Source: Candidatus Krumholzibacteriota bacterium (GTDB taxonomy: Bacteria > Krumholzibacteriota > Krumholzibacteriia > LZORAL124-64-63). Taken from it: 64,000 bases of DNA. Positions within the stretch are counted from its first letter, which is position 1. Each line of letters begins with the position of its first letter. Shown in pieces: positions 20,274 through 48,074 of the stretch. A program made the position numbers and the translations under genes. The stretch covers positions 25,782 to 89,781 of the forward strand of contig JBDLKA010000004.1 in assembly GCA_039714075.1 (NCBI GenBank). Reading direction: 5' to 3'. The notes below the pieces were generated by a model, which was not told where the DNA came from, did not search any database, and saw nothing but the letters and a program-made list of their open reading frames with translations.

Positions 20274-20440
20274 GAGAATGCTCCTAACCCTGCGGTCGGT
20301 TTGTATGAGCTCCCCCGTACATATGGTAGCCGCGGTTGCCCATTCCTTGAAGAACGAAGTTGTTGATCAACCGGACTGATTCTGCCTGGTTATTTCCCTC
20401 GTTCTGCCAGGGCAGGTATGCAATCGTTATGCCCAACAGG

Positions 20441-20470
20441 AAAACCCCGCCACTCAAAGAGCAGCGGGGC
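20441..20470 (-). terminator. Intrinsic terminator
   Basis: CCCCGC..GCGGGG stem followed by a T-run on the minus strand, just after the LamG gene. Confidence 0.6.
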
Positions 20471-20497
20471 CTTGGTCGTCAGGAAAAAATCCCCACC

Positions 20498-21925
20498 TCA
20501 CCTCAACAGTATCGCCTTCCTCGTCTCGACCTTCCCCCCGATATCCACGCGGAAGAAGTATTCGCCCGAGGGTACCGCACGGCCGGATGAATCACGCCCC
20601 TGCCATTCGACGGAATGTTTGCCGGCCGCGTATTGCCGGTCAGCCAGATTCGCGATCAGGCGTCCCCGAATATCGTAGACCAGCACGCGAACCTGATGCG
20701 TCTGGTCGGTGGAAAAAGAGATGGCCGTGGTGGGATTGAAGGGATTCGGCGTGATCCGGATGTCCTGATCGCCGAACAGACCCTTGTTCCCGCCCCACGC
20801 GGCCTCGATCATGTCCGCCCCGCTGATCGGCTGACCGTCATACGTTTCCCCGGTCAGCGAAACCTTGGTGTCGCCGCACTGGATACCGGAATCGGGAACG
20901 CGGAAGTGGAACAGCAGGTCCAGGTCGCCGTCTCCATCCACATCCGTTTCGTGACGGACAGGACCTTTAAGGTTGGCGTGAGCTTCTGCAGTTTCAGCGG
21001 GGCCGAAAAGAACGGTGGCATGATCGACGTTGGTCGCATCGAATTCAGCCGTCGTGAGCAGGGCCACCGGCACAACATGGTTGGCGTGAGGGTTGCAATT
21101 GACCCGGTTTTCATCACTATCGGGTTTCACATCAATGCCGACGTCGATGGTTGCGGGCGCACACTGCGGAATCTGCACCTGGTCCCAGGTCGGGTCGAAA
21201 TCATCACTGTCCGGGGTGCTGCCGCGGGTGGCGTCATTTCCGTTGAACGAGCTGTCGAAAGCGGTCTGACCGGAGCCCTCATCAAACTCCCAGCAGGCCA
21301 CCAGACCCGCTTCGTCGCCATCCAGTTTGGAACACATCATCTGCTGGATCTGCTCCGGCGTGCGCGCGACCTCCCAGAGACGGACCTCATCGATCGAGCC
21401 GATGATCCCGTCGACGAAATTGCCGAAACGCCCAATCATCACGTCCCTGTCGTACGCGTGGATTTGACCGGACGCTGCCCTGCTGCTCACTTCCACGCCA
21501 TCCACGAAAAGGCGCATCGCCGTTCCGTCATAAGTTCCGGCGACATGCACCCACTGGCCATAGGGCAAGACATCGAGTGGGGACCTCAGCAAGTGGCGCG
21601 TACCGTTGATCGCCAAATCGAACAAAAACTCCTGCGACCGTGAGTTGATGCCCAAATGGTACTGGTAATAGGGAGCGCTGTGACTGGTGAAGGGCTTTTC
21701 AATGAGGGGGCAATTGCCCAGATCCCAGAATTGTCCGGGGATCATGCACCACACTTCGATGGTAATGGCATCGGCGGGATCGAGGGTCTCGTTTCCCGCG
21801 GCGTGCAGATAGTCTCTCCCGTCAAACTGGAGCACATGGTTTGCACCGGCGGCATCCGAACCTGAAAAAAGGAACACGGCGAAAAGAAAAATCAGGAAAG
21901 CGCTTCGGCGCAGATATGGATACAT
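20498..21925 (-). CDS. Secreted LamG/concanavalin-like domain protein with C-terminal FlgD-Ig/T9SS-like domain
   Basis: WVHVAGTYDG..LFVDG..IDEVRLW LamG motif; PNPFNPTT C-terminal domain; start moved to ATG 21925 (signal peptide). Confidence 0.85.
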   Translation of the reverse strand: MYPYLRRSAFLIFLFAVFLFSGSDAAGANHVLQFDGRDYLHAAGNETLDPADAITIEVWCMIPGQFWDLGNCPLIEKPFTSHSAPYYQYHLGINSRSQEFLFDLAINGTRHLLRSPLDVLPYGQWVHVAGTYDGTAMRLFVDGVEVSSRAASGQIHAYDRDVMIGRFGNFVDGIIGSIDEVRLWEVARTPEQIQQMMCSKLDGDEAGLVACWEFDEGSGQTAFDSSFNGNDATRGSTPDSDDFDPTWDQVQIPQCAPATIDVGIDVKPDSDENRVNCNPHANHVVPVALLTTAEFDATNVDHATVLFGPAETAEAHANLKGPVRHETDVDGDGDLDLLFHFRVPDSGIQCGDTKVSLTGETYDGQPISGADMIEAAWGGNKGLFGDQDIRITPNPFNPTTAISFSTDQTHQVRVLVYDIRGRLIANLADRQYAAGKHSVEWQGRDSSGRAVPSGEYFFRVDIGGKVETRKAILLR

Positions 21926-22161
21926 GGTCAACCCCCGAACAATTTGAATGGAATATGAAGCAGAACCCGATGTTGCCAAACCGAAGGGTGATTATACCTC
22001 ATATCCTACCGAAAGTAAATGAGTTGGAAGGGAAAACCCGATTGATATTTCCGGCTGGAACTCGAGACATGGACTTGCCGGCAGACCCGGTTTATAGTTA
22101 AATTGGATCTTTTTACTCTTGGTTGTCCGGTTTTCAGAACACCTTCCCAAGGAGACGAACA

Positions 22162-23187
22162 ATGAACCGCCAGCTCGACCCGGGTCACATCATGCAGACC
22201 GCCACCGGCTTCTGGGCCTCGAAGGTACTGCTCACCGCCGTGGAACTGGAACTCTTCACCGTGCTTGACGACGAATCCATGACCGCCCCTGAACTCGGCG
22301 AAATCCTGGGGCTGCACCCGCGCGGCACTTTCGATTTCTTCGATGCCCTGGTGGCCCTCAAATTCCTGGACCGCGATGGCGACGGCCCCGGGGGCCGGTA
22401 CAGGAACACTCCCGAGACGGCCGCTTTCCTGAACAAGAAAAGCCCCACCTACATCGGTGGAATGCCCGAGATGTTGAACAGTCGCCTCTTCGGTTTCTGG
22501 AACCATCTGGGCACCGCCCTCAAGACCGGCGAGCCCCAGAACGAGATGCGGACCCACGGCAAGCCGATCTTCGAGGAACTTTATGCCCACACCGACAAAC
22601 TGGGCGAGTTCCTCTCCGCGATGACCGGCTTCCAGGCCGGCAACTTTTCCATACTGGCCGAGAAGTTCGACTTCAGCGGATACAAGACGGTCAGCGACAT
22701 CGGGGGCGCCCTGGCTCTTATGTCCTGCATCCTGGGAGCCCGTCATACCCACCTGACGATCAATACCTTCGACCTGCCGCCGGTCGCTTCCCACGCCCAG
22801 GAACACATTGATGCCGCGGGCCTGACCGACCGTGTTTCCGTGGTCTCCGGCGACTTCTTTGTCGATGACCTGCCCCGGGCCGACGTCATCACCATGGGGA
22901 ACATCCTGCACGACTGGAATCTGGAAAAAAAGAAGATCCTGATCCACAAGGCCTATGAAGTGCTTCCCGAGGGGGGTGCCCTCATCGCCATCGAAAACCT
23001 GATCGACGATGCCCGCCGGGAAAACGCCTTCGGTCTCCTCATGTCGCTCAACATGCTCATCGAGTTCGGTGATGCCTTCGACTATACCGGAGCCGACTTC
23101 CGCGAGTGGTGCGCGGAAGCCGGCTTCCAGCGTTTCGAATTCATCCCCCTGGCCGGCCCGACCAGCGCGGCGGTCGCGTACAAGTAG
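22162..23187 (+). CDS. SAM-dependent O-methyltransferase family 2 with N-terminal dimerization domain
   Basis: DIGGALA, FDLPPV, GDFF and ILHDW motifs; ATG 22162 after AAGGAG. Confidence 0.9.
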   Translation: MNRQLDPGHIMQTATGFWASKVLLTAVELELFTVLDDESMTAPELGEILGLHPRGTFDFFDALVALKFLDRDGDGPGGRYRNTPETAAFLNKKSPTYIGGMPEMLNSRLFGFWNHLGTALKTGEPQNEMRTHGKPIFEELYAHTDKLGEFLSAMTGFQAGNFSILAEKFDFSGYKTVSDIGGALALMSCILGARHTHLTINTFDLPPVASHAQEHIDAAGLTDRVSVVSGDFFVDDLPRADVITMGNILHDWNLEKKKILIHKAYEVLPEGGALIAIENLIDDARRENAFGLLMSLNMLIEFGDAFDYTGADFREWCAEAGFQRFEFIPLAGPTSAAVAYK

Positions 23188-23241
23188 GGACCGATGTGTC
23201 CGGTTGCCGGATCGGGAAAAGGCCTGACCGGCAACTCCCTG

Positions 23242-26200
23242 TCACTTGACCAGGGACATGCGCCGGGTTTCGGTATGATCCCCGGCCTCGAACCGGTACA
23301 GATAGATTCCCGCAGGCGCCGGTCGACCCGCGTTGCTCCTGCCGTCCCATTGTTCTTCGTGGCGGCCGGCGGTCATTTTCCGGCCGTCTATCAGGGTGCG
23401 GACGGTCCGTCCCGCGATATCGAATACGGTCAACCGGACCGGGACATCCTTCGCCAGGTCAAACCGGATGACCGTGCTGGGATTGAACGGGTTGGGATGG
23501 TTCGGGAAGAGAGCCGAATGCAACGGCGTGGTTGCATCGGGCACTTCCGAAACCATGTTCACCACGACCGCCGGGCTCTCGTTCCCCGCAAAGTCCGTTG
23601 CTGTCAGGAAGTAATAGCCCGGATTCGGCCCTGATATGGTCAGCATGGTCCCGGTAGTGTGGTCGATCACGACCGCGGTCCCGTCCAGGGTCGGATTGGC
23701 GGACCCGTAGACCGTGAAATAGCGGAAATCCGGCTCGTCATTTTCGTTCCATGCCAATTGGTCGGCCGCCGCCAACACGAATCCCGTCGGAACCGAGGGC
23801 GCCAGGTTGTCCACGGAGTAGCCACTGTCGGGCGCGGCATCGAAATAGACCCCCGGCGTGGCGGTGCGCGCCCGCACGAAAAATACCGACTCGTACATGC
23901 CGTCGGTGATGGTCGAGTCGCCCAGGGTGGGCACGACGACGGCGTACTGGTCCTCGGCGTCGGCCGGCACGGTCGTCACGAAGTGCCAGTCACCGGGCGG
24001 GTAGGCCTTGTCCCATTCCGCCACGCCACTTTCCATGGATGCCAGGCTGTCGATGCGGCGGTAGACGGCATACTCGGTTATCGGCATCGCACTGCCGACA
24101 AAGTCATAACCGGAACGCTCCCACGCGAGGCTCACCTGGCGGCCCTGGTCCCCGGGCACGTCGACGATCGCATCGACGGTCGGAATATCGTACAGCCACT
24201 CGAATTGAAGGTTGGAACAGCTGGGATTCATCTGCGGCCGAACCACAGTGTGGTTGGAGCGCCATTTCAACTGGGTACCGGGGCTGGCCAGGTTGTACCA
24301 ATTGCCGTCGGCGGCCACCGGCGCATAGGCCGTGCCCCCGTCGGAGCTCAGTTCCCAGGTAACATCTTCGGTCTGGATCGTGGACAAACGAGCCTGAACG
24401 GCATTGCTGGAAAGGGTGGCGAAAACCGTCGAATTGGCATAATTCGACCAGGGATCGAACATTCTCTGGGAAACGGCCACGGTTTCCATCCCGTACGTGC
24501 TATTGCCGAGGTAAACGTGGTTTCCGGCCACGGCCACACTAGCCGCCGTGTAGGAACCGTCGTAGGCGTCGATCAGGGTTGGAATGGCCGGGTCCGTGAT
24601 GTCCAACCGGACAATGCCGTGGAGTTGCACCCCGACGAACAGGTCGTCACCCCTGACCCGGACGTCCAGCGCGGAGGCGGATGTTGCATAGGTTCCGATT
24701 TGCGACGGCACCGCCGGATTGGACACGTCCAGCACGACGACACCGTTGTACGAGTCCGCCACGTACGCCTGGTCGCCGTCAACAGCCACATCATAGGCAT
24801 ATGATGTATCGAATACCGTAACCGGGGAAAAGCGAACTCCGGCACTCGGAAAAAATTCCAGGACCTGGATGCCGGGCGCCCCCAGGGCGACGTAGACATA
24901 ATTACCCTCGATATCCAGACTCCAGCCCGTGCCCGCCAGCCCCATCGGGCCCATGACTCCGATGGCGGGCAAGGAACCGAGACTGAAGGCATAGATGCTG
25001 CTGCCCCCGAGCAGAGCGGCCCTGTCCCCTTCGATGGCGATGGCGCTGAAGGAACCAGCGGTCTTGTTGGCCAGGGTCGGATTGGACAGGTCGCTGATGT
25101 CGAGCACCACGAAGCCCTGAATGGCATCGGCGATGAAGGCATAATCACCGGCTACTTCCACCTGCTTGCAGCTCCAGGTGTAAGCCGGGTCCTTGAATTG
25201 GCCCAGGAGATTCGGGTTTTCCGGATCGTTGATATCATAGATGTAAAGTCCGTTGTTCCCCGCGGCAACGAACGCCACATCGCCTACGATGGCAGCGTGG
25301 GTGTATCCCACGGCGCCGGCTTGGCCGCCAACGGACTTCAGTGGAATCGTCTTGGCCGCCTGATAGCCGTAAAGGAGGCCGCCTGTGGCAGCCAAATAGG
25401 CGGAGTTTCCGGCCACGGTGACGGCCATGCCCGAAGCGGTGGCCGTACCCGTGGTGATCGTCTGAATCGAAGCGGGATCCCGGACGTCGAGCAGGGTGAG
25501 TCCGTCGGTGTAGTCCGCTACATATGCGTATCCGCCCACAATGCATACGTCACGGGAGTCGCCGCCCGTTGCTGCGGCGCCGACCTGGACCGGAAGCGCC
25601 GGGTCGGTGACGTCCAGCACCAGGAGTCCCCCGGATCCGTCGGCGACATAGGCGGTATTGCCTTCCACGAAAAGGCCGTAGGCATTGCCGGGCGTGATCT
25701 TGAAACCGACCTGCAACATGAGGGACGGATCGCTGACGTCGAAAATCCGGTAATGGTGGGTGTAGCTGACCGAATGAAGAAGGTCTCCGTCCAGAACCAG
25801 GTCTCTGACCGTGGAGGTGGTCGTTATCGTGTCCAGTACGTTGGGTGCCGTGGGGTCCATGATGTCGATCGCATGGATTCCACCGTAATCACTCGCCAGA
25901 AACGCGGTATTCCCGTCGACAACTACATCATAGGCGGATCCGTACGGGTCGACATTGCCTATCAAAACCGGCGTGGCCGGGTCGGAAATATCGAGAATCT
26001 GCAGACCGCTCCCGCCGTCCGCCAGATAGGCGATGTTGCCGTCGACTGCAATCCCGTATGAGGTGCCGGTTGTGTTGTAACTTCCTGCTATCGAAGGCGA
26101 GAGCGGATTACTGATGTCCATGACCACCAGGCCGGCCGTGTATGCGGCAATGTAGATGTAGTTTCCATCCACCACCATGTCCCGCGGTTGTCCGGTAAGT

Positions 26201-26409
26201 ATGGCCTGGAAATCCCAGTCCATGTAGAAGGGGCCCATACGGATTTCCCCGTCCGCCGTCGACCAGACCGCCGAGGTGCTACCTTTGTAAGTGGTTGTGG
26301 TGAAATCCTCTTCAAAAAAGCCGGCCCCCACCGCCAGGGTCGGCATGAGGCCGGCCGTCACGATGGCCAATACCAGCGCGCAACCCAGTTTCTTCATTCT
26401 CGAATTCAT
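23242..26409 (-). CDS. Secreted LVIVD-repeat protein with C-terminal FlgD-Ig/T9SS-like domain
   Basis: More than ten repeats of AYLAD..GLQILDISDP; PNPFNPST C-terminal domain; ATG 26409 after GGGAGA. Confidence 0.88.
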   Translation of the reverse strand: MNSRMKKLGCALVLAIVTAGLMPTLAVGAGFFEEDFTTTTYKGSTSAVWSTADGEIRMGPFYMDWDFQAILTGQPRDMVVDGNYIYIAAYTAGLVVMDISNPLSPSIAGSYNTTGTSYGIAVDGNIAYLADGGSGLQILDISDPATPVLIGNVDPYGSAYDVVVDGNTAFLASDYGGIHAIDIMDPTAPNVLDTITTTSTVRDLVLDGDLLHSVSYTHHYRIFDVSDPSLMLQVGFKITPGNAYGLFVEGNTAYVADGSGGLLVLDVTDPALPVQVGAAATGGDSRDVCIVGGYAYVADYTDGLTLLDVRDPASIQTITTGTATASGMAVTVAGNSAYLAATGGLLYGYQAAKTIPLKSVGGQAGAVGYTHAAIVGDVAFVAAGNNGLYIYDINDPENPNLLGQFKDPAYTWSCKQVEVAGDYAFIADAIQGFVVLDISDLSNPTLANKTAGSFSAIAIEGDRAALLGGSSIYAFSLGSLPAIGVMGPMGLAGTGWSLDIEGNYVYVALGAPGIQVLEFFPSAGVRFSPVTVFDTSYAYDVAVDGDQAYVADSYNGVVVLDVSNPAVPSQIGTYATSASALDVRVRGDDLFVGVQLHGIVRLDITDPAIPTLIDAYDGSYTAASVAVAGNHVYLGNSTYGMETVAVSQRMFDPWSNYANSTVFATLSSNAVQARLSTIQTEDVTWELSSDGGTAYAPVAADGNWYNLASPGTQLKWRSNHTVVRPQMNPSCSNLQFEWLYDIPTVDAIVDVPGDQGRQVSLAWERSGYDFVGSAMPITEYAVYRRIDSLASMESGVAEWDKAYPPGDWHFVTTVPADAEDQYAVVVPTLGDSTITDGMYESVFFVRARTATPGVYFDAAPDSGYSVDNLAPSVPTGFVLAAADQLAWNENDEPDFRYFTVYGSANPTLDGTAVVIDHTTGTMLTISGPNPGYYFLTATDFAGNESPAVVVNMVSEVPDATTPLHSALFPNHPNPFNPSTVIRFDLAKDVPVRLTVFDIAGRTVRTLIDGRKMTAGRHEEQWDGRSNAGRPAPAGIYLYRFEAGDHTETRRMSLVK

Positions 26410-26539
26410 CTTGGTCTCCCCTTGTCCTTGCTGTGGATGCTCCCAACCATGCCTGCTCTCATCAAACACCATCCGGAGTCGGATTAAGTTGCAGGGGATT
26501 GAGGATTTGGCAGGGAAGTGTTTGTGGGGGGGGTTTCTT

Positions 26540-26575
26540 CCGGCCGCCAAACCCCCGCGGGCTTGGCGGCCGGAT
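26540..26575. terminator. GC-rich hairpin, probable terminator
   Basis: TCCGGCCGCCAA / TTGGCGGCCGGA inverted repeat just downstream of 26603-28660. Confidence 0.55.
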
Positions 26576-26602
26576 GGAATGAAAATCAAAAAGAAACGCG
26601 GA

Positions 26603-28660
26603 CTACTTCAACAGCGTGATCCTCTGGACGAAGCTCCGGCCACTTGCCTGCAACCGCAGGAAGTAGACCCCGCTCGCCTGCCTGCCGGCGTTCCAGGTCA
26701 AGCTGTGATGGCCGGCTGTCTGCTCCTGCGCCACCAACGTCCGGACCTTTTCGCCGGCCACGTTGTAGACACTCAGCTCGACCGGACCGTCGCGGTCCAG
26801 GGTATACGCGATCTTCGTGACCGGGTTGAAGGGATTGGGACTGACACCTTCGATGCCGAGGGTGCCCGCGACCTGGTCAAGGACGGGCGGATCGGCGTGC
26901 ATCAGCAGGAGGACGTCCGACCCTGAATATTCTTCGCCGCCCATTTCGAAAGTCAGCTCCAACTCGACGCAGAATTTCTTGGTCGGCACCACATCGGGCG
27001 GCAGCATGGCCAGGATGGCCGCCACCACTTCCTGGGTATCGAACTTGATGGTCATATCGAGGAAGCCGTCCGGACCATCGGTCGAGCAGCTGTTGCAATC
27101 CAGCAACTCGCCGTCGTAGGGAGTGGCGACATCCTCGAAAGCGGTCCGAATCGGCACTACGAAGGCGTTTTCCAGATCCTCTTCACCCATCCTGAGAGGC
27201 AGCGGCAGATCCGCGGTCACCGGCGCTACCCCTTCCAACCGGATCGAAGCCGGATCAATCATGGTCACGTCCACTTCGTCCGTGCCCAGGATAGCCACCG
27301 GCAGCACACCCTCACCCGTTGCGTTGACCGGATTGGGACAGGAGGTCGGCTTGATGTCGACGAAGATATCGGGAGGCTCGAGCTCCGGTACTTCGGTGGC
27401 GTTGAGGATATTGATATACCAGGCGGTCGCGAGGGGGCCATACCAGGCCGAGTACCCGCTCCAGCTCCCATCGGGGTTTTGAATGTCCACCAGGTATTGG
27501 CAGTAGTGGGAGTACCAGTCGTCCGCGGCCGAGGCCAACGGATCCTCGGCAAAGCCGATCGTATAGCCGCCGGTGGCAGCCGCCATCCCCGTACCGACCA
27601 GAATCGGTTGTGCCAGGGAAAAGACCACATCAGTCAGGCCGTAGACGGACAATCCCTTGTAGACGGCCCACATGGCATAGGGGTGATTGAAGTTGCCGTA
27701 CCAGGTGCCGCTGGGGAAGGTGTTCCACCGGCCGTTGATGAAGTTGATGGCGGCCTGGACGGACGGATGCGAGACCGCCCGGCCGACGACCGCAAACTCC
27801 AGCAGCAGGCCGCCGGTCTTGCTTACGTTGACATATGACGTGGGAGAGCTGTAGCCGGAACCGCCACTGGTGTCGTTCTGGACATAATCAGCCCAAAGTT
27901 CCAGTTCGTCCCGAACGTATTGCGGAGCCCCCAGTCCCCAGTCGGCGGCATACAGGTAGGGCAGGGCGCCCCACTGCGCCGTGGAATTGTCGGAGCTGCC
28001 GTAATTGGCGTCGTAGCGCCAGCCGCCCCGGTAATTGCCTGTGTTGGGCTCGACCTGCCCCCAGCTGAACCAGTCGACCAGGTCCTGCATGAGTTGGGCC
28101 CAGGTCAACCCGCTGACCGCTGTAGAACCCATTCCGATGACGGTGTTTTTGCCCAGCCGCTCCCCGAGCGCATAAACGGTCGGGACACAAATCCCGGTCG
28201 TGTAGACGTTGCGGTTGGGAACACCGATGTTGAAATAGATGGCCTGGTGGTTGCCGCCGTCGTTGGTGAAGATGCCGTCATTATTGTAGTCCTCGGCATA
28301 GCGTGTGTAGACGGCCAACTCAACGCCGAAGCGACTGTCCACTGCCGCCCGGTTGAGCATGTACAGGACCGCCCGGCCCACGACATCCCCGTAGTTGACG
28401 CCGTTCATTTCAAAGTCGACGCCGGGCAGCCATTCCTCTTCGACAAAAGCCAGGGTTGCCGCCGCGGTGGTGGCCAGGGTCCCGTCGTTGCTCAAGTTCC
28501 AGTAACCTTCGCCTCCGCTGACGACCTGGGTTTGGGCCAGCCAGACCAGGGCGGTGTCGATGGCCGCCTGTTTCTGCTGCTCGGTAGCGGCCAGAGCGCT
28601 GCCCCCAAGTACCAGGACAAGCAGGGCAACGGCAATGATGGTGAGAGAATAGTTCCTCAT
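26603..28660 (-). CDS. Secreted protein with prenyltransferase/squalene-cyclase-like QW repeats and C-terminal FlgD-Ig/T9SS-like domain
   Basis: WLAQTQ, GGWRY..DNSTAQW and YLVDIQNPDGSW repeats; PNPFNPVT C-terminal domain. Confidence 0.78.
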   Translation of the reverse strand: MRNYSLTIIAVALLVLVLGGSALAATEQQKQAAIDTALVWLAQTQVVSGGEGYWNLSNDGTLATTAAATLAFVEEEWLPGVDFEMNGVNYGDVVGRAVLYMLNRAAVDSRFGVELAVYTRYAEDYNNDGIFTNDGGNHQAIYFNIGVPNRNVYTTGICVPTVYALGERLGKNTVIGMGSTAVSGLTWAQLMQDLVDWFSWGQVEPNTGNYRGGWRYDANYGSSDNSTAQWGALPYLYAADWGLGAPQYVRDELELWADYVQNDTSGGSGYSSPTSYVNVSKTGGLLLEFAVVGRAVSHPSVQAAINFINGRWNTFPSGTWYGNFNHPYAMWAVYKGLSVYGLTDVVFSLAQPILVGTGMAAATGGYTIGFAEDPLASAADDWYSHYCQYLVDIQNPDGSWSGYSAWYGPLATAWYINILNATEVPELEPPDIFVDIKPTSCPNPVNATGEGVLPVAILGTDEVDVTMIDPASIRLEGVAPVTADLPLPLRMGEEDLENAFVVPIRTAFEDVATPYDGELLDCNSCSTDGPDGFLDMTIKFDTQEVVAAILAMLPPDVVPTKKFCVELELTFEMGGEEYSGSDVLLLMHADPPVLDQVAGTLGIEGVSPNPFNPVTKIAYTLDRDGPVELSVYNVAGEKVRTLVAQEQTAGHHSLTWNAGRQASGVYFLRLQASGRSFVQRITLLK

Positions 28661-28909
28661 GAGAATCCCCCCTCGATTCATGGTAAGAACGATTTTTGAA
28701 GATTAAGGCCGGTAGGAATCCTCCGTGAGAATCGTCACCTCCCTTGCTCCCGTTCCTTGAGGGGGAGAAGTAGATTGGCCTGTCTTGAAATCCGCTGGGC
28801 GAGGGGAGGGCAAGGCGGAGACAATAACACAAACTCAATTTTAAAAACAACAAATTTTACCAGAATTGTCCACAATGTCAGTATGACAAAGGCCGGCCGC
28901 CAAATCGGA

Positions 28910-36377: not shown

Positions 36378-38141
36378 TCACTTGAGCAGCATCATCTTCC
36401 TGGTCTCTACCAGGTTGCCCGTTTGGAGCTGGTAGAAATAGATACCGCTGGAGCGACCGCGGGCATCCCACGTCACCGCGTGCATGCCTTCACCCAGGAC
36501 ACCATCGACCGGGGTATCGACCAGACGGCCGCGTGCGTCATAGACGCGCAGGGCGGTGTATCCCTCGTGCGGAAGCACGAACTGGAACACCGTGGTCGGA
36601 TTGAACGGATTCGGATGATTGGCCAGCTGGACCGCACCGGTCGCGGGCAGGCCGCGGCGGTACACGTCGCCGCTCTCGCAGCTGCGTGTGGTCACGTTCG
36701 AGGCCGGATCGTAGGTCAGCGAAGCGTGGGTAACGTCGGTCACCTCGAAGCACCACTCGCCCGAGGGGTTCTTCAGCTTGGGCGTCGAGAAGGACGCGAC
36801 GCCGGTCGAACCTGTCAGGGAGCTCAGGGTCCCGCTGTTGGGGCCGTCATAGCTGACGGTCACCGTGGCGCCGGCCGCAGGCGCACCGCCGTCGTCGACG
36901 ATGGTGACACTGCAAAGGCCGGTGTTGTTGGGCCCGGCGACCTTGCGGCTGACGGCAATGTCAGAGACGTACATCGTGCTGCCGCCGCTGCCCGGCTCGG
37001 TGACCGTGATGTACCCGTTCCTGGTCAGGGTGTCCGAACCGTCGCCGTTGGCCACCGTCAGACTCACGTTGTAGCTGCCCGCGGCGGTGTAGGTGTAGCT
37101 CGGATTCTGGGCGGTCGAGGTGCCGCCGTCGCCGAAGGTCCAGTCCCAGCTCGTGGGCCCGCCGGTGGACTCGTCGCTGAACGCCACGGTCAGCGGGTAG
37201 TCGCCGCTGGTGGGGGTCCCGCTGAAGGCCGCCGTCGGTCCGGTGGGCGTCGTGCCGCCGTACATGGTCGGGCGGTAGAGGGCCATCTGCTGGTTCATGC
37301 GCGTGGTCTGGTCGGCCGTGAACTCGTACATGCAGTAGTCGTCCGTGTAGTCCATGAAGTTGGTGATGGGGTCGATGCCCGGAGCGGAGCAACTGTCGCG
37401 ACCCTCGGGGCACCCGTAGGCCGGGGAGCTTTCCTGGGGAGTGTCGTCGCAGTAGTCGTTGGGCTCCGTGCAGCCGTCCTGGAAGGTGTGATACAAGCCG
37501 AGGAAGTGACCCGTCTCGTGGGTGGCCGTGTCTCCCTCGTTGTAGGGATCGGCCCAGCCGCCGGGGACCGAGCCCCAGAGGCAGACGACGCCGTGCAGGT
37601 AGCTGTCCTCGGGATACATGTCGGGGAAGGTCGCGTAGCCCAGCAGCCCGCCGCCGATGTCGCAGAAGTAGAGGTTGTAGGTGGTGGCCGGATCGATGGC
37701 CAGGGCCTGCTTCATCTGGACCATCTGGTTGCTGCCGTAGCGGTGGGTGGACCACCTGGTATTGTAGGTGCGGTCGATGCTTGCCAGGGAGAAGCTGAAC
37801 CCGGTGCCCTGGTAGGCGGCGTTGAGTACGTCCATCTGGTCGTAGATGTAGGAATCGGGCACGTCGGCGTAGCCGTCATCGTGGGCGACGACGTGGATGG
37901 CGACCGGAATCACGACGCCGGCCTTGTCGCGCATGAAGCCGCTGGCCTTGAGCCAGGCATCGACCGCCTGGGCGTTCCGTTCAATGTCGTCGGCGGTCGG
38001 GACAGGCGTGGAGCAACGGACCCCCTGGACCACGGCTCCGGCGGAATTCTGATAGGTGATGTCGGCGGCCATGACGGCCGTCCCGAGCATCAGGATAGAT
38101 AGCGACAACAACATGAATCCCAATGGCTTGAATCTCTCCAC
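36378..38141 (-). CDS. Secreted M43 (pappalysin/ulilysin-like) zinc metalloprotease with PKD and FlgD-Ig/T9SS-like domains
   Basis: HETGHFLGLYH zinc motif; NFMDY Met-turn; PKD motif WTFGDG; PNPFNPTT C-terminal domain. Confidence 0.92.
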   Translation of the reverse strand: MERFKPLGFMLLSLSILMLGTAVMAADITYQNSAGAVVQGVRCSTPVPTADDIERNAQAVDAWLKASGFMRDKAGVVIPVAIHVVAHDDGYADVPDSYIYDQMDVLNAAYQGTGFSFSLASIDRTYNTRWSTHRYGSNQMVQMKQALAIDPATTYNLYFCDIGGGLLGYATFPDMYPEDSYLHGVVCLWGSVPGGWADPYNEGDTATHETGHFLGLYHTFQDGCTEPNDYCDDTPQESSPAYGCPEGRDSCSAPGIDPITNFMDYTDDYCMYEFTADQTTRMNQQMALYRPTMYGGTTPTGPTAAFSGTPTSGDYPLTVAFSDESTGGPTSWDWTFGDGGTSTAQNPSYTYTAAGSYNVSLTVANGDGSDTLTRNGYITVTEPGSGGSTMYVSDIAVSRKVAGPNNTGLCSVTIVDDGGAPAAGATVTVSYDGPNSGTLSSLTGSTGVASFSTPKLKNPSGEWCFEVTDVTHASLTYDPASNVTTRSCESGDVYRRGLPATGAVQLANHPNPFNPTTVFQFVLPHEGYTALRVYDARGRLVDTPVDGVLGEGMHAVTWDARGRSSGIYFYQLQTGNLVETRKMMLLK

Positions 38142-38370
38142 GGCGAGCTCCTTTGATCAGGTAGGAGTGGATTGGCGAACTACAGGATGGCTATAGAGCG
38201 GAGATGTCCTGAGGATTTGCGGGGACGTGACCCATACACGACAAACCCTGCACACCACACGTCTCGAAAATCATACTAGCATGAATGGTAATCTGTTTTC
38301 AATATAAAATAGCGGACCAATCCGCTTTCTGAACCGGCGGCAAATGTATTCCCTTAATCCGTGTCGGAGG

Positions 38371-41300
38371 TCACCTGACCAGCATCATCTTCTGCAACAA
38401 ATCCCCCGCACCGGTCTCCAGTTTCGAAAAGTAGACTCCCGAAGCAACCGCCCGGCCGCGACCATCGGTGCCGTTCCACACAACCTCGTGTTCGCCGGCT
38501 GGCATGACCTCGCCGAGCAGCGTCTTCACCAGTTGGCCGCGGGCATCGAAAACCCGCAATTCCACAGGTCCGGATGACGGCAGACTGAAGCGGATGCCCG
38601 TCATGGGGTTGAACGGATTCGGAGCGATCCTCATGGACAATTGCGGCCGCGGGGTGTTCCCGTTGTCCAGCGCGAATTCCCCGTCGTTCAGACCGGCCAC
38701 CGCCATCGCCACGTCACCGGAAGCCGGCAAGGTTGGGTGGATCTCCCCCTCGAGGACCACCGAGGGGGGTTGCCCTTCCGAACCGCTGCCGGATCCCACC
38801 CAGAAGTAGGCCGGCTCCGCATCGGTAACCGAAACGCGCATGTGCACGAGTTGGAGAGGTCGATCGGAAAGCGTGCGGCGGGTTACGGGATACCCCACGA
38901 CCAGGCCGTCGCCGGCAGTGAAATCGAGACCGGTTCCCACCAGGTCCTGTTGGTGGACGACGACGTTTCCGCTCACCCGAATCCGCAGGTCGAAAGCCTC
39001 GATGCCGGTCTGGGCGGCGGAACCGTGCAGAACGACATAGGCATCGATCTGCTCGCCCGGGTCAAGCATGCGCGAGCTCCAGATTCCCGCCGCGTCGAAA
39101 ACAACTCCCATGGTTCCAACGAGCCGGGTCCCGGCCGACCCGCCCCCGGCCACGATCGTCTTGGCCGGAACCGGGCACGACACTCCCATGACCGGACCGA
39201 GCTTGGCCACATCGGACAGGTTGATCATCCCGTCCCAGACGAAATCCGCGGCATAGTCGTACGCTTCACCGAAATAGATGCCGGCAAAATCGGCCACGTC
39301 ATTCAGGGACACCTCGAGGTCGCCCGTGATGTCGGCGCCGTTGACGAAATACTCGAGGCCGTCAAGCCCGCCCGGGTAGCTTGTCGTGTTCAACAGCGGA
39401 TCATCCACGCTCACCTGCAGCAACTCGCCCGGTCCGCTATGGCCGCCGGCGAAAAGAACTCCGCTGATGGTCGTTGCGCCGGTTGCGTCCGTCGGGCCAT
39501 CAGCCGTCAAGGGAGAACCGGGGCATTGGGTCCAGCCGCCGTACTGGGATCTGACGCTTATCTTTTCGGCCGGGAAGCCCACGACCGGATCGCCGAACCC
39601 GTCGACAACCTGCACACCAATGGCAGCATCCACTTCGATTGGCGCCGCACCGGATACGCCGTCCCAAGACAGGGCCGCGGTCAGCGGATGGCCCAGGCCG
39701 TCGGGCGTCGCGAAGAGGGAAACCGGTCCGCCGAGGGCCTGCACGGGGAAGACGGTCACGTTGATCTCGCCCGCAGGTTCGGGTTCTGATCCGGCGGCAT
39801 AGTTCTGCAGGATGTCCTCCAGGGGCAAGGAGCGATCGAACAGGGCGACAAGGTGAAGCTCGCCGAGCCAGGGCCGGTCACCCGTCAGTTCGTTGGCCAC
39901 TCCCAGGCGGTAGGATCCATCCCAGTTCGAAAAATCCCCGGTTGTCTGACCGTTGACCCGTTCCACCCCGTCGACGAAAATCCTGGTCAACCCGGCGCTG
40001 TTGCGAGTGAACACCACATGGGACAATTCCGTGGTCAGAGTCCCTACCAGGGTCGCGAGTGCGGGTTTCCCGTTCAGGTCGGTGGTCGTCGACCGCAGCC
40101 GCACTTCGTAGACGTCCGAGGCCTCTCCGTAGACACCCTGCCCGAGGGTGAAATTCCGCGTCCCGGTATCAGGCGAGAGGGTCACGATGCGGGCGGGTCC
40201 GTTCTGGGTGAGGTTGGCCGGCTTGATCCAGGCCTCGATGGTGATCTCGTTGGTGGCCGTCACCGCGTCGATGAGTTTGGTCGAAGCTCCCGCCGTGCCG
40301 ATCACCGTCGAGCCGTTGACGGACAGGGCGCCGGCCAACCAACCCACGGCGCCGGGGTCGTCGATGACCAGGTCGGCCGGAGTCCCCACTCCGGACAAGT
40401 CGTTGACCGTATTCCCGCCGCCCTCGTTGAAATCATACAGGACGACCTGGCCCGCCGTGGCCCGGGACCCGGGTACCAGCACGGTGAGGACGGCCTCATC
40501 GCTGACATCGCCGCCCAGCCCGTTGGTCACCACGCAGCGGTAGAGATCGCCGTCGTTGACGGCCGCAAGCGGTGGGGTCGTGTAGGTGGAATCGGCGGCG
40601 GCGGGAATATCCATCCCATTGACCTGCCACTGGAAGGAAAGCGGGTCGGCACCGACCGCGACGACACCAAAAGTCGCGGTGGCTCCTTCGAGGGCGAACG
40701 TGCTCGAAGGCTGGGTGACCACACTGGCGGGGACATTCGAATAGTCCACGTACCGTACGACCACGCCCGGCCCCGGCCAAAGGTATTCCGCGCCATGGTG
40801 GGAACTGGCGGAATAGACCGTGACGGTATTCGTGCCGTTCTGCAGAATGTTCGTGGGGATTTCGATCTGGTCGAACGAATAGGAATGGTCCTCGCCGAAT
40901 ACGGGGGTGGTCCAGCCGTTCACCCGCGTCCAGTGGACCTCTCCGGGCTCGGCTTCACCATTGAGCCCGTTCCAGGTGGCGACAAGAAGGCGCGCCGACT
41001 CGGCGTTGACCAGATCGTGCCCTGCCGGAATGACGAAGTCGCTGGAGCGGGTCCGGCCGGCCCTCACCCAGTATTTCTCCGGAACACCGGTCGGACGGTA
41101 CATCGCGACACTGATTCCGGGGCGGCTGAGGGTCAGGCCCGACACCCGGTCGGTGACGAACCACAAACCATTCGCATCCCGGATGCGGGCGACGACTTCC
41201 ATCCCGCCGGCCGGCTGGTCGGGAATCCAGGAGTTGTCCCAGGACACCGAGAAGGGCGAAGAGATCGTCGTGCCGATGTGATTGCGGATCATCACCGAGG

Positions 41301-42063
41301 TGTCGGACCGCAGACGATGGTAGCTTTGCTGCCAATCGGTGAATATGCCGTCGCCGTCGGCGTCGTAGTCATCGTAGTAGCCGATGAACTCGACGCGGCT
41401 GATGCCCGCGCCGCTGGCGGCATCCGCTGTGAAGACGGGACTGATACCGATCGTGTCTCCGGCCGCCGGGCTGGTGATGTTCCCGGTCGGCGCCGTTTTC
41501 TGGCCCGGATCGTAGAAGACCCGCAGGAGGAATCCGTACCACCCCCACTGCCCCCAGCCGAAGCTGTAGCACGTCTGTCTATCGGAAATGCCCTCCAGCG
41601 AGTTGTTGCCCTGCACCAGGTCCGCAAGAGGGACTTCGACTTCGATGGAAAACTGATGGTTGTAACACTCGGGGCTCGTCGGGGTGTTGGCGATCTCGGG
41701 AATGTCGATCCAGTTGTTGCCGTTCAGGCGGAACTGCTTGCCGATCGTTCCGATGTGCCCGCCCCAGACATCGATGACCGCCACGGCCCTGATCGCGCCC
41801 TGCAGGTCGGACACCGAAAGACTGAGCACGGGATTCGGCAGGAAGGTGGAGGGAGAATTGTTGGGATCCCCCACATAGGTGGCGTCAGGGTCCGTCACCC
41901 TCCACAGGTTGTTGCTGTTCGGAATGATCCTGGAAAATTCCTTGTACACCAGACCCGGCGCCACGGCCTTCAGGGTGTCGGAAGTCGAATACTGGGCACA
42001 CACCGGATTTCCCGCCAGCACCAGAAAAACGACGGCAAGAAAAATAAATGGCACCTGGCGCAT
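38371..42063 (-). CDS. Large secreted multidomain protein (Ig-like, LamG, dockerin-like, FlgD-Ig/T9SS-like C-terminal domain)
   Basis: Signal peptide from ATG 42063; Ig-like FQWQ..YRCVVTN; LamG ITIEAWIKP..SHVVFT; paired Ca-binding-like loops; PNPFNPMT. Confidence 0.82.
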   Translation of the reverse strand: MRQVPFIFLAVVFLVLAGNPVCAQYSTSDTLKAVAPGLVYKEFSRIIPNSNNLWRVTDPDATYVGDPNNSPSTFLPNPVLSLSVSDLQGAIRAVAVIDVWGGHIGTIGKQFRLNGNNWIDIPEIANTPTSPECYNHQFSIEVEVPLADLVQGNNSLEGISDRQTCYSFGWGQWGWYGFLLRVFYDPGQKTAPTGNITSPAAGDTIGISPVFTADAASGAGISRVEFIGYYDDYDADGDGIFTDWQQSYHRLRSDTSVMIRNHIGTTISSPFSVSWDNSWIPDQPAGGMEVVARIRDANGLWFVTDRVSGLTLSRPGISVAMYRPTGVPEKYWVRAGRTRSSDFVIPAGHDLVNAESARLLVATWNGLNGEAEPGEVHWTRVNGWTTPVFGEDHSYSFDQIEIPTNILQNGTNTVTVYSASSHHGAEYLWPGPGVVVRYVDYSNVPASVVTQPSSTFALEGATATFGVVAVGADPLSFQWQVNGMDIPAAADSTYTTPPLAAVNDGDLYRCVVTNGLGGDVSDEAVLTVLVPGSRATAGQVVLYDFNEGGGNTVNDLSGVGTPADLVIDDPGAVGWLAGALSVNGSTVIGTAGASTKLIDAVTATNEITIEAWIKPANLTQNGPARIVTLSPDTGTRNFTLGQGVYGEASDVYEVRLRSTTTDLNGKPALATLVGTLTTELSHVVFTRNSAGLTRIFVDGVERVNGQTTGDFSNWDGSYRLGVANELTGDRPWLGELHLVALFDRSLPLEDILQNYAAGSEPEPAGEINVTVFPVQALGGPVSLFATPDGLGHPLTAALSWDGVSGAAPIEVDAAIGVQVVDGFGDPVVGFPAEKISVRSQYGGWTQCPGSPLTADGPTDATGATTISGVLFAGGHSGPGELLQVSVDDPLLNTTSYPGGLDGLEYFVNGADITGDLEVSLNDVADFAGIYFGEAYDYAADFVWDGMINLSDVAKLGPVMGVSCPVPAKTIVAGGGSAGTRLVGTMGVVFDAAGIWSSRMLDPGEQIDAYVVLHGSAAQTGIEAFDLRIRVSGNVVVHQQDLVGTGLDFTAGDGLVVGYPVTRRTLSDRPLQLVHMRVSVTDAEPAYFWVGSGSGSEGQPPSVVLEGEIHPTLPASGDVAMAVAGLNDGEFALDNGNTPRPQLSMRIAPNPFNPMTGIRFSLPSSGPVELRVFDARGQLVKTLLGEVMPAGEHEVVWNGTDGRGRAVASGVYFSKLETGAGDLLQKMMLVR

Positions 42064-42200
42064 GGGGTCCCCCAGGAGAAGAATGAATGATGTCCAAAAG
42101 GGGTTGCGGCCGAATGATAATTCGGCCGCATTCGGAATATCCCCCCCAGACACCATAGATTGGTCAGGGGTATTCCGCTACCTGACGGGGATTGCAGCGC

Positions 42201-45581: not shown

Positions 45582-46328
45582 ATGGCGGGACTTGACGATC
45601 TGGTTCCGGATCATGTTTTCGACGGCGGTGACCTGGACTGCGGGTCGGGCCTGGTACTGCTGATCCGGGAGCACATGCTCAAGGTACCGCCGGACGGTGT
45701 CCTGGAGATGCGTAGCGTCGAATCCACCGTGGCCGACGACCTGCCGCCCTGGTGCCGCATGGTGGGACACGAGTTTCTGGGGTCGCTTCCCGGGGAATCG
45801 GCCGCCCAGAAACGGTTCTTCGTGCGGAAGGGAGCCGGCCAGGTGGCGCAGGAAGAAGCCAAAGCCCTGGAAGAGGACAAGGACCGCGCCCGACAATACC
45901 AATGGCGCCTGCGGGCACGGGCGTCAGGTCATCTGAAGACCACGGTCTACTGTCGCAACTTCCAGTGGGATCTGGGGCAGCCCGCCAGTTTCGAGGAGAA
46001 GGACGCACATCCTTCGGCGGTGGAGGCCGTGCTGGGGGCCCTTGCCGGCGACCTGGTGACGGGGTTTTCCTCGGCTGCGGCCGCCTCCGGTCTGACGGTG
46101 GACGATGTGGAACTGACGGCCTGTGGAAGGTTGCACGATGTCATGGCCCACCTAGGTCTGAGCGAGGGCGATCCATCGTTTGCGGCCATCGAGGTGAAGC
46201 TGTTTGCCTCGACATTCGACGATGAAGAACGTGTGCGCACGGTCTGGGAAAAGACGGTCCGGCGTTCACCCCTGGCGGCAACCTTGGCCAAGGCCACGGA
46301 GTTGGTGGCGAAGATCGCCATCGTGTGA
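45582..46328 (+). CDS. TusA-like + OsmC-like fusion protein
   Basis: True start ATG 45582; N-terminal DGGDLDCGSG..DLPPWCRMVGH; C-terminal OsmC-fold pattern PSAVEAVLGALAGDL..RSPLAATL. Confidence 0.82.
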   Translation: MAGLDDLVPDHVFDGGDLDCGSGLVLLIREHMLKVPPDGVLEMRSVESTVADDLPPWCRMVGHEFLGSLPGESAAQKRFFVRKGAGQVAQEEAKALEEDKDRARQYQWRLRARASGHLKTTVYCRNFQWDLGQPASFEEKDAHPSAVEAVLGALAGDLVTGFSSAAAASGLTVDDVELTACGRLHDVMAHLGLSEGDPSFAAIEVKLFASTFDDEERVRTVWEKTVRRSPLAATLAKATELVAKIAIV

Positions 46329-46337
46329 GGAGAATCA

Positions 46338-47489
46338 ATGTTCGACGTGACTCAGGTAGGTAGCTGGCCTCGCTCAAGAGACCTGCTGCGCGCCCTGCGG
46401 GACAAGCGGTTGGGGCGTATGTCCCGGGACGAGTTCGACAAGGTGGCCGACGAGGAAGTGCGCCGCTGCGTGGCCCACCAGGTGGAAGCCGGGGTGGACC
46501 TGGTTGTCGACGGCGAGCAACGGCGCGATAACTTCTACTCCTTCGTCGCCGACAAACTCGACGGCACCCGCCTGATGTCCCTGGCCGAGATGCTCGATAC
46601 CGTGGACGACAAGGCCGCCTTCGAGGAAATGCTTTCGACCCTGGATGTGCCGGCTTCGGCCATCCGCAATCCCACCTGCACGGGCCGGATCTTCCGCCGC
46701 GAACCGCTAGCTGTAGAAGAACTCAAGTTCGTGCAGCAAATTACGAACAAGCCGGTGAAAGTCACCCTGCCAGGGCCCTATCTCCTGACCCGCTCCATGT
46801 GGGTGGGTGCGTTTTCCAGGGCCGGTTACGACGACAAGGCCGAACTTGGGGACGACGTGGTGAAGATCCTGCGCGAGGAACTCGGGGAGCTGCGCGACGA
46901 GGGCGCCGCCTTCGTGCAGTTCGACGAGCCGGTCCTGACCGAGATCGTCATGAGCGAGGACAACGACCGCCGCACCTTCATGTGAGCCACCCTGGCCACC
47001 CGCCGTGATGCGGGTGCCGAGCTTGAATACGCGGCCGAGCTGATCAACCGGATCACCGACGGAATCGAAGGCGTCCGCACCGGTGTTCACGTCTGCCGCG
47101 GCAACTGGAGCCGACAGGAAGACGTGTTGCTGACAGGTGACTATCACGCGTTACTGCCCGCATTCGACGCCATGAAGATCGACCAGTTCGTGCTGGAATA
47201 CGCCACGCCCCGGGCCGGCGAGCTGGCCATTGTCGGCGAGGCCTTGAACGACCGGGAGCTTGGTCTGGGCTGCGTGAATCCCCGCACGGATGATGCCGAG
47301 GATTCCGCCGACATCGTGGCGCGCGCCGAAGAAGCCCTGCGGTACTACCGGCCCGACCAGATCTTCCTGAACCCCGACTGCGGTTTCGGTTGCTTCGCCA
47401 ACCGTTGCGTCAACGAAGAAGAGCACGCGGTGGCGAAATTGAAATCCATGGTCGGTGCTGCGCGAAAATTGAGGGAGCGGCATGGATAG
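46338..47489 (+). CDS. Cobalamin-independent methionine synthase (MetE catalytic domain)-like protein, 383 aa, probable selenocysteine at residue 216
   Basis: ORFs 46338-46985 and 47124-47489 share a frame, separated only by TGA 46983-46985. VGSWPR, DGEQRR, TLPGP and VQFDEP lie before it; Zn ligands HVC, E and PDCG lie after it; SECIS-like hairpin follows. Confidence 0.85.
46992..47021 (+). promoter_or_regulatory. Putative bacterial SECIS element
   Basis: Stem CACCCGC (46997-47003) / GCGGGTG (47010-47016), loop CGTGAT, extended by GG/CC and CT/AG pairs with bulges; starts 11 nt after the TGA. Confidence 0.72.
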
Positions 47490-47507: not shown

Positions 47508-48074
47508 TCAGGTCCAAAGGTGATCCACGGCCTTCACCAGGCGTTCGGGTCCATCGCCGTCGGGTGAGACGATCAGGTAATTGACGATCCCGATGTTGAG
47601 TGATGTGAGCAACTTGGCCAGGCCTTCGATGTCCACCGCGGGCGCGAGATCCCCCGCCTCCCGGGCGGCCCTCAGGTTGGCGAGATAGCGGCCCTCGGTA
47701 CCCTCGACCATGCTGGTCACCTTGGCGAAGGCGTCGCCGGGAACCACGAACTTTTCGCGGATGAGATTGACGGCGAAGCAGCCGTGGGTGGTGCCGAACT
47801 CGAGGAGCGCCTGGTAGGCATCCCGTATGTTCTGCAAACCCAGCGGCTTGCGGTCGTAGATGGCCGAAAATGACGCCAGCTCCTCCATATAGGCCGCCAG
47901 GGCCGCCATGAACAGCCCTTCCTTGCCCCCGAATTCCTTGTAGAGGCTGAACCGGTTGATCCCGGTGACCTCTACAAGCTCCTTCAGGTGGGTGCCTTCG
48001 TATCCCTTGGTCCAAAACAGCTTCATCGCCTTGTTCAGGACGTCGTCACGGTCGTATTTGCGTGGGCGGCCCAT
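47508..48074 (-). CDS. TetR/AcrR family transcriptional regulator
   Basis: MGRPRKYD..FWTKGYEGT..GINRFSLYKEFGGKEGLF helix-turn-helix. Confidence 0.92.
   Translation of the reverse strand: MGRPRKYDRDDVLNKAMKLFWTKGYEGTHLKELVEVTGINRFSLYKEFGGKEGLFMAALAAYMEELASFSAIYDRKPLGLQNIRDAYQALLEFGTTHGCFAVNLIREKFVVPGDAFAKVTSMVEGTEGRYLANLRAAREAGDLAPAVDIEGLAKLLTSLNIGIVNYLIVSPDGDGPERLVKAVDHLWT

Follow-up and report, generated by a model that had tools for sequence, protein, structure and literature searches.

The closest described relatives of the gene analysed here are methionine synthases of the MetE fold. MetE itself, as known from Escherichia coli, Thermotoga maritima (structures 1T7L, 3BQ6 and 1XDJ) and Neurospora crassa (4ZTX), pairs an N-terminal folate-binding barrel with a catalytic TIM (triosephosphate isomerase) barrel, and for the E. 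coli enzyme PMC7857596 gives the homocysteine-binding residues (S433, E484 and D599) and the identities of the Zn ligands. The MesA-MesD proteins described there (Price et al. 2021) are single-barrel enzymes of about 340-380 residues that have the Zn and homocysteine residues, and a further type, the YxjG/YxjH-type 'methionine synthase II', is represented by Listeria 1YPX. Selenocysteine (Sec), in turn, is known to replace a reactive Cys in DsrE-like, rhodanese-like and OsmC-like selenoproteins, which act in sulfur transfer or the redox chemistry of thiols, according to Table 1 of PMC13188914. Here, we describe a gene that appears to bring the two subjects together. It lies at 46338-47489 on the forward strand of a 64,000-nucleotide stretch of a Candidatus Krumholzibacteriota genome (contig JBDLKA010000004.1 of assembly GCA_039714075.1, positions 25,782 to 89,781; hereafter the window, whose numbering we use), at the end of a cassette of putative sulfur-carrier genes. 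Mainly from comparisons with related sequences, we conclude that it very probably encodes one 383-residue MetE-fold protein in which the UGA at codon 216 is decoded as Sec by means of a downstream hairpin.

Translation of the gene gives a single frame of 383 codons, the only internal stop being the TGA at codon 216 and the terminal stop a TAG at 47487-47489. Its two halves, the open reading frames 46338-46985 (215 residues) and 47124-47489, share that frame, and the translation around codon 216 reads DNDRRTFM, stop, ATLATRRDAG. The one Pfam match, PF01717 (Meth_synt_2; residues 4-376, E=1.8e-33, 116.7 bits against a cut-off of 21), crosses the TGA. All four MetE-type Zn ligands, H251, C253, E287 and C348, lie 3' of the TGA and do not vary in any of the 24 aligned homologues; both halves of the gene are under strong purifying selection. 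The original prediction, made from the letters of this DNA, had described this frame with its stops and length, the position of the Zn ligands behind the TGA and the lack of decay in either half; each of these points is borne out.

Directly behind the TGA, residues 217-220 are invariant in all 119 sequences compared, with codons that vary freely (synonymous entropy 1.6-2.0 bits). The first in-frame start after the TGA is a GTG at 47124, beyond H251 and C253, and the 46 codons in between hold the invariant residues A217-A220, R222, D224, H251, C253 and R254-W257. Because residues 217-220 are conserved as amino acids rather than as codons, and because no start precedes the first Zn ligands, this stretch must be translated by read-through, which rules out a pseudogene and a split gene. 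That the UGA is instead a true stop, with a split gene yielding two polypeptides or with no product beyond the N-terminal 215 residues, agrees with the gene callers, which predict 215 residues everywhere, and with the in-frame GTG at 47124. However, the synonymously varying codons with their invariant residues stand ahead of that first start and have to be translated, and the Cys forms described below are single chains; we regard a true stop as highly improbable.

With the read-through protein as query, the protein collection yielded thousands of full-length relatives, none of them above 70% identity. The best 120 share 58-70%, and 119 of these have Cys at the aligned position within the motif [ST]FMC, as do 24 of 24 in the aligned homologue set. 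The prediction had related proteins reading FMC at this point, which holds for nearly all of the best full-length relatives and, as described below, for the fused ones too. The exception, P0011 (377 residues, from a 1156-nt contig), is without six residues around the Sec site (EDQR is followed directly by TLATRRD); it sits inside the Sec clade of the tree with the Sec-type peptide TLATRRDAG and either has lost the Sec codon by a natural deletion or reflects an artefact of assembly. The N-terminal half used as a query gave 120 listed matches that share 80-100% identity with it and include the window's own protein. Among these listed matches all 120 end in [RK]TFM, 108 of them at exactly 215 residues. 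Since every one ends at TFM and no full-length relative exceeds 70% identity, the closest relatives are all TGA forms.

The same conclusion holds at the DNA level. A pattern back-translated from residues 213-224, with TGA, TAA, TAG or TGG allowed at codon 216, was run on species-representative genomes and matched at least 120 loci in more than ten phyla, one species genome each (L001-L120). Among those listed, codon 216 is TGA in 118, TAG or TGG in none and TAA in two; the two TAA loci have no open frames around them and were rejected as chance matches. An architecture that recurs in 118 other genomes is not chance. By record title the carriers belong to Planctomycetota, Desulfobacterota, Verrucomicrobiota, Acidobacteriota, Bacteroidota, Krumholzibacteriia, Eisenbacteria, Calditrichia, Gemmatimonadota, Gammaproteobacteria, Fibrobacteraceae and Armatimonadota, with Desulfopila aestuarii DSM 18488 and Desulfobulbus alkaliphilus DSM 24258 as cultured Desulfobacterota, and the window protein is at most 84.3% identical to any protein from these loci. 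Of 79 TGA loci with flanks, 73 are open for at least 198 residues upstream and at least 150 downstream. The six exceptions are four loci near a contig end (L033, L046, L048 and L077) and two that appear damaged, both from metagenome-assembled genomes (MAGs): L035 has an early TAA 48 codons after the TGA and L039 a stop 5 codons before it. A further MAG locus, L019, has a stop within the N-terminal half of the gene.

A private nonsense mutation or an assembly error, leaving a pseudogene, would account for a gene split by a single stop, and the few relatives that look damaged (L035, L039 and L019) are in line with it. Its probability is nevertheless practically negligible, given that 118 other species genomes share the TGA at this codon, that all 120 listed N-half proteins end there and that both halves are under purifying selection. 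On the tree, 63 of 73 Sec forms fall in one clade with two rows labelled Cys, P0011 and P0016, the former being in fact without the Cys/Sec segment. As read from the tree, this interleaving of Sec and Cys forms is the usual pattern of Sec/Cys exchange.

The hairpin predicted behind the UGA is present. Its upper stem of 6 bp pairs ACCCGC (46998-47003) with GCGGGU (47010-47015) and carries the apical loop CGUGAU (47004-47009); a lower stem, 46993-46996 with 47016-47019, is seen in the window. The 6-bp stem starts 12 nt and the apical loop 18 nt after the UGA, and overall the loop reads CG(U/G)GA(U/C). Bacterial Sec insertion sequences (bSECIS elements) are described in PMC13188914 as having a loop of 3-9 nt, a stem of 4-16 bp, 16-37 nt from UGA to loop and a minimum free energy of -7.5 kcal/mol or lower, with G as the first or second loop nucleotide and, as a rule, G or U after it. 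The hairpin falls within all of these limits (6-nt loop, 6-bp stem, G at loop position 2, 18-nt spacing, -17.3 kcal/mol). Over the 119 sequences the stem is paired in 95.3% of cells, compared with 28-49% when the partners are slid by 1-3 columns.

The strongest evidence for the hairpin is the constraint at synonymous sites. Synonymous entropy collapses at codons 221, 222, 225 and 226: Thr221 is ACC in 115 of 118 sequences, whereas Thr213 and Thr218 of the same genes use ACC in 137 of 238 cases, Arg222 is CGC in 112 of 119 and Ala225 is GCG in 104 of 110, with more varied codons at Arg211 and Arg212 and at four other Ala codons of the same genes (Fisher p from 4e-18 to 1e-36 for the three positions). 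Arg223 is encoded only by CGU (78) or CGG (34), so that the loop has U or G where the consensus calls for it. Six loci, mostly of Bacteroidota type (L010, L016, L035, L086, L103 and L113), encode TRSDAD or TRSDAG after the Sec codon. There the common 6-bp hairpin gives way to one that is longer and bulged, with a loop of 7 nt, and that offers a second way of building the SECIS in this gene.

Read-through could also proceed without Sec, for example by a near-cognate tRNA that inserts Trp or Cys independently of SelB. However, true orthologues have only TGA at this codon, never TAG or TAA, the aligned residue is Cys, the usual counterpart of Sec, and a conserved hairpin of bSECIS type stands at the right distance. 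In addition, TGA terminates neighbouring genes, including the third gene of the cassette (46326-46328), and in 37 of 75 loci it is the terminal stop of the MetE-like gene itself. As TGA is thus also an ordinary stop in these genomes, its meaning is context-dependent, and insertion of Trp or Cys without SelB is very unlikely.

Several observations weigh against Sec at residue 216. No selA, selB, selD or tRNA-Sec gene was found within the 64-kb window, and no tRNA-Sec in the 60 loci scanned (L001-L060), although absence of the tRNA near the gene is uninformative because selC need not be linked. The window contains 131 TGA read-through candidates, among which a second selenoprotein gene was not found: the 15 run against Pfam show no domain crossing the TGA, and a screen of codon-position GC content over all 131 left this gene, the ordinary junction of cassette genes 3 and 4, and antisense frames. 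The stability of the hairpin is not above that of dinucleotide shuffles (z=-0.29), and against synonymous recodings the median z is -0.78, with only 10 of 119 sequences within the best 5%; as stability was significant in neither control, we relied on synonymous-site conservation instead. There is little compensatory covariation, with 2 double changes and an observed score that 7 of 500 shuffles attain, the RNAalifold consensus is an uninformative 4-pair structure of -0.28 kcal/mol, and Rfam at gathering thresholds gives 0 matches in the window. Finally, more distant MetE-like subfamilies have a non-Cys residue at position 216, so that this residue is not needed for the basic chemistry of the fold. 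Set against the shared TGA, the aligned Cys and the constrained SECIS-type hairpin, these points leave the Sec of the original prediction very probable. A separate pair of window frames, 10474-11055 and 11101-12114 (+ strand; 193 and 337 residues, same frame, one TGA), has no Pfam match either as halves or as a read-through product, and recoding there is unsupported.

Positions in the window of the MetE-like gene, its recoding and active-site elements and the other genes of the cassette.
Feature	Position	Strand	Basis or description
Cassette gene 1, TusA-like, 80 residues	44949..45191	+	PF01206 30.4 bits against a cut-off of 28.6; NCBIfam TusA match weak
Cassette gene 2, DsrE-like, 121 residues	45214..45579	+	PF02635 E=1.5e-15, 57.9 bits against a cut-off of 22.7
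Cassette gene 3, TusA-like (DLDCGSG, PPWCR)/C-terminal OsmC-like fusion, 248 residues	45582..46328	+	Pfam OsmC 29.6 bits; TusA match weak
Ribosome-binding site GGAGAA	46329..46334	+	Read from the sequence; spaced 3 nt from the ATG at 46338
Cassette gene 4, MetE-like Zn enzyme	46338..47489	+	383 codons; UGA codon 216 very probably read as Sec
In-frame TGA, codon 216	46983..46985	+	Aligned with the invariant Cys of homologues
SECIS-like hairpin	46993..47019	+	Fold, pairing over 119 sequences, synonymous constraint
Zn-ligand codons H251 and C253 (HVC of HVCRGNW)	47088..47096	+	C253 codon starts at 47094; invariant columns, aligned with motifs of solved MetE structures
Zn-ligand codon E287	47196-47198	+	Invariant column
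Zn-ligand codon C348	47379-47381	+	Invariant column

The AlphaFold (AF2) model of the protein is of high confidence as a whole, with a predicted local distance difference test score (pLDDT) of 87.2 and a predicted template-modelling score (pTM) of 0.89. Foldseek aligns it to the catalytic barrel of T. maritima MetE with a template-modelling (TM) score of 0.74-0.76, E about 1e-21 and ~20% identity, and MesD 3RPD and 1YPX match at a similar level. In the alignment, the invariant residues S9, E60 and D196 fall on the MetE motifs GS, GE and DEP. Together, the Zn ligands and the alignment of these three residues with the homocysteine-binding ones make a homocysteine-like amino-acid thiol the likely Zn-bound substrate. 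Neither canonical MetE nor 1YPX has residues that align with the segment R-T-F-M-C/U-A, and the model puts residues 209-212 and 216-221 in a loop of low confidence that follows the DEP strand. The Cys/Sec loop is presumably mobile, and a Sec acting as an extra nucleophile apart from the Zn ligands, as had been proposed, fits the flexible loop of the model. Within the best 150 cluster representatives, only 11 of 63 full-length proteins have the FMC motif, mostly the top scorers; as more distant subfamilies have other residues at position 216, the Cys or Sec defines a subfamily, which we refer to as FMC/FMU.

Judged by its sequence, the protein is not a canonical MetE (Enzyme Commission number 2.1.1.14): the folate-binding barrel at the N-terminus is missing, and the scores fall far short of the methionine-synthase cut-offs. 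PF08267 reaches 23.5 bits against a cut-off of 27, over only 75 residues, the equivalog models TIGR01371 and NF003556 give 100.5 against 929.95 and 104 against 541 bits, and even the best NCBIfam methionine-synthase model, NF003317, gives 186 against 406, every such cut-off being missed. It does not fit MesA-MesD well either, with 20% identity to MesD 3RPD and no DUF1852 or corrinoid-protein gene among its neighbours.

Some further cysteines near the active site deserve mention. In 73 of 119 Sec-form genes a Cys stands seven residues before the Sec (C-x6-U), a possible resolving partner; at this codon 209 (46962-46964) the window has Asn, and Cys-form relatives have Ser, Gly or Gln. After the Zn ligand C348, Sec forms and the nearest Cys relatives read DCGFGCFANRCVN, whereas more distant Cys forms read DCGFGTFANRP, which gives the Sec clade two extra Cys near the Zn site (C352 and C357; window 47391-47408).

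The MetE-like gene is the last of four head-to-tail genes, following a TusA-like gene, a DsrE-like gene and a TusA-like/OsmC-like fusion, and starts 10 nt after the stop of the latter. All three partners have conserved Cys residues. In the first protein these are Cys22 (in a CG motif) and Cys59 (in AWCR), whose columns are kept in 53 of 56 orthologues from flanked loci; the second has a conserved C6 and a C82-x-P-C85 motif, with C82 and C85 kept in 71 of 72; and in the third C20 and C58 are invariant in 25 of 25. The NCBIfam model OsmC_like_Se matches the third protein weakly (19.7 bits against a cut-off of 95). None of the three genes contains an in-frame TGA, and the cassette holds no selD, selB or yedE.

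The association is widespread. By tblastn, gene 3 adjoins the MetE-like gene in 75 loci. When all open reading frames from 80 sources (the 79 flanked loci and the window) were clustered, the halves of the MetE-like gene were found in 77-78, the TusA-like/OsmC-like group in 76 and the DsrE-like group in 71, window included, and any other sense-strand gene in at most 18. TusA- and DsrE-family proteins with conserved Cys, as expected of a TusA/DsrE-type relay, are thus co-encoded in 71-76 of the 80 sources. Sporadic stops occur in two MAGs (a TAG in the dsrE-like gene of L034 and a TAA in gene 3 of L045) and are probably sequencing errors or decay. Upstream frames of 411-480 residues in L004, L011, L015, L020, L026, L027 and L040 were considered as OsmC-like/MetE-like fusions and rejected, the upstream gene being in another frame. 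In the window, a gene for a TetR-family regulator (47508-48074, - strand) runs towards the MetE-like gene from its 3' side; this regulator gene stands beside the cassette in 0 other loci.

The neighbourhood bears on whether the protein is simply a core folate-independent methionine synthase, in which residue 216 would be redox-protective or regulatory, for example in guarding the Zn-thiolate, and the carrier genes would serve something else. Known core synthases are of similar size, and the Zn ligands together with S9, E60 and D196 are invariant and match E. coli S433, E484 and D599. However, the protein misses all NCBIfam methionine-synthase cut-offs, the best by 186 against 406 bits, no MesX (DUF1852) or corrinoid-protein gene is nearby, and the only conserved neighbours are TusA-like, DsrE-like and OsmC-like, with a TusA-like domain fused to the enzyme itself in Proteobacteria. 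A core synthase therefore seems rather unlikely.

The fused form was found by tblastn of plasmid and chromid records. In Paracoccus a 42%-identical Cys form carries a TusA-like domain (DLDCGNG, PAWC) fused on the N-terminal side of its MetE-like domain (SFMCG). The family comprises at least 120 protein clusters from many Proteobacteria, with 72-98% identity among the matches listed, and among the fused relatives listed all 120 have [ST]FMCG and 119 an N-terminal CG motif. Members come from Paracoccus versutus, Xanthobacter, Nitrospirillum, Pseudomonas stutzeri and others and are annotated as MetE; some, such as P0289 from Pigmentiphaga humi, bear the name '2-hydroxypropyl-CoM lyase' or '5-methyltetrahydropteroyltriglutamate--homocysteine methyltransferase'. 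The source names of the fusion proteins are probably wrong, since these proteins lack the folate domain and have a TusA-like domain attached.

In Paracoccus ferrooxidans pFER4 (L121; record positions 1317076-1328122) the order is TusA, DsrE, two further proteins (one membrane-like of 168 residues, one of 522 residues without a Pfam match), the TusA::MetE-like fusion, then selA (PF03841, 502 bits) and trxB, with a cysteine desulfurase gene upstream on the other strand. It is unusual for selA to stand without selB beside it, which may point to a connection with selenium. This locus is what favours a cassette that handles selenium, in salvage or traffic, for instance through demethylation of a methylated selenium compound or as a perselenide carrier, and so feeds selenophosphate and Sec synthesis; PMC10418091 also proposes related methyltransferases of the UroD superfamily as demethylating methyl-selenides. 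However, selA adjacency was seen in the single P. ferrooxidans locus inspected, two P. versutus relatives being left out, there is no selA in the flanks of 121 other sequences (120 loci and the window), and selD, selB and yedE are missing from the cassette. We consider a selenium-handling cassette quite unlikely.

For the protein with Sec216, or Cys elsewhere, we tentatively propose by analogy that the residue in the loop may exchange sulfane sulfur or selenium with a Cys of the TusA-like partner and carry it to or from the Zn-bound substrate. In such a cycle, Sec/Cys216 would take sulfane sulfur (or selenium) from the Cys of the TusA-like domain or give it up to that Cys, and the loop would swing residue 216 to the Zn site, where a homocysteine-like amino-acid thiol would be bound. 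With Sec the exchange would be faster, in keeping with the DsrE-like, rhodanese-like and OsmC-like proteins that are known in Sec forms. What speaks against a sulfur- or selenium-transfer role is that only gene neighbourhood, gene fusion and analogy argue for it. The broader proposal, that the FMC/FMU proteins are not methionine synthases and instead form the terminal enzyme of an undescribed sulfur (or selenium) relay, with the Sec/Cys loop working between a TusA-like carrier and a Zn-bound homocysteine-like substrate, is possible but doubtful. If it is true, the relay chemistry would be new for the MetE fold, the protein would be the first selenoenzyme of that fold, and the relay would be spread over more than ten bacterial phyla and, as the Cys form, many Proteobacteria. 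Roles other than transfer, core methionine synthesis and selenium salvage are unlikely.

Elsewhere in the window, 16191-28681 and 36378-42156 (- strand) encode very large secreted or surface proteins with FG-GAP, LVIVD, Laminin_G_3 and PKD domains, which end in FlgD_ig or Por_Secre_tail sorting domains. By their domain content, this run of large surface proteins suggests a cargo cluster of FCB-type (type IX-like) secretion.

MetE-like enzymes are not known among the commonly listed selenoprotein families, as the prediction noted, and the catalogues agree. No MetE-like or PF01717 entry stands in Table 1 of PMC13188914 (May 2026), which counts 119 families and subfamilies of prokaryotic selenoproteins, and through which alone the families of Haft & Tolstoy 2025 and Deng et al. 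2026 are covered. The terms methionine synthase, MetE and homocysteine are absent from the main texts of the GOS paper (PMC2398784), Peng et al. 2016 (PMC5029168), deep-Sep (PMC12013277) and BSepDB (PMC13326102), and methionine synthase, PF01717 and similar terms from the deep-Sep supplements and the searched part of the BSepDB supplement. Carrier species do occur in the BSepDB supplement, though only in its list of 64,762 genomes analysed, which says nothing on Sec use. NCBIfam release 20 has no model for the FMC/FMU family, the protein search gave no full-length relative annotated with Sec, and full-text literature searches yielded no description of a MetE-like selenoprotein or of a TusA/DsrE/MetE-like cassette. 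The gene thus probably represents a new selenoprotein family attached to an uncharacterised cassette.

Public annotation gives the gene as a cut-off 215-residue 'methionine synthase' or a hypothetical protein, which means that a probably functional enzyme is mis-annotated in 118 or more genomes at species level and in no fewer than 119 other protein clusters at 90% identity. Its recognition would add a family of Zn-dependent alkyl-transfer TIM barrels to the selenoproteome, and the strict linkage to TusA-like, DsrE-like and OsmC-like genes, together with the Proteobacterial fusion, points to a widespread uncharacterised pathway. Cultured, tractable carriers are available for both forms, with Cys in Paracoccus versutus and Pseudomonas stutzeri and Sec in Desulfopila aestuarii and Desulfobulbus alkaliphilus.

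Compared with the systems outlined at the start, the window protein has the same catalytic TIM barrel as MetE (profile E=1e-31) and shares its H-C-E-C Zn ligands and GS, GE and DEP substrate motifs, but is only ~20% identical, has 383 residues against about 750 with no N-terminal folate-binding barrel, and adds the R-T-F-M-C/U-A loop and a sulfur-carrier operon. MesA-MesD are likewise single-barrel, and MesD 3RPD matches with a profile E=1.9e-31 and a TM score of 0.73 at about 20% identity; here, however, the partners are TusA-like, DsrE-like and OsmC-like instead of MesX (DUF1852) or a corrinoid protein, and a term search of PMC7857596 found no mention of TusA, DsrE or selenocysteine. The YxjG/YxjH-type protein 1YPX is of the same length (residues 2-383 align to 2-364, E=5e-31) and has no Cys at the aligned loop; NF005085 matches residues 2-377 of the window protein, but the scores for NF004875 and NF005085 stay below the cut-offs (114 against 313 and 98 against 576 bits). 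The TusA::MetE-like fusions are members of the same FMC subfamily with the same TusA/DsrE neighbours and the same TusA-like motifs (DLDCGxG, P.WC) as gene 3. They differ in having Cys and in carrying the TusA-like domain on the enzyme rather than on the OsmC-like domain, and the Paracoccus cluster also includes two unknown proteins along with selA, trxB and a cysteine desulfurase. Among known selenoproteins, the DsrE-like and OsmC-like families with Sec are the same families as those found in the cassette, whereas here the Sec would reside in the MetE-fold enzyme instead.

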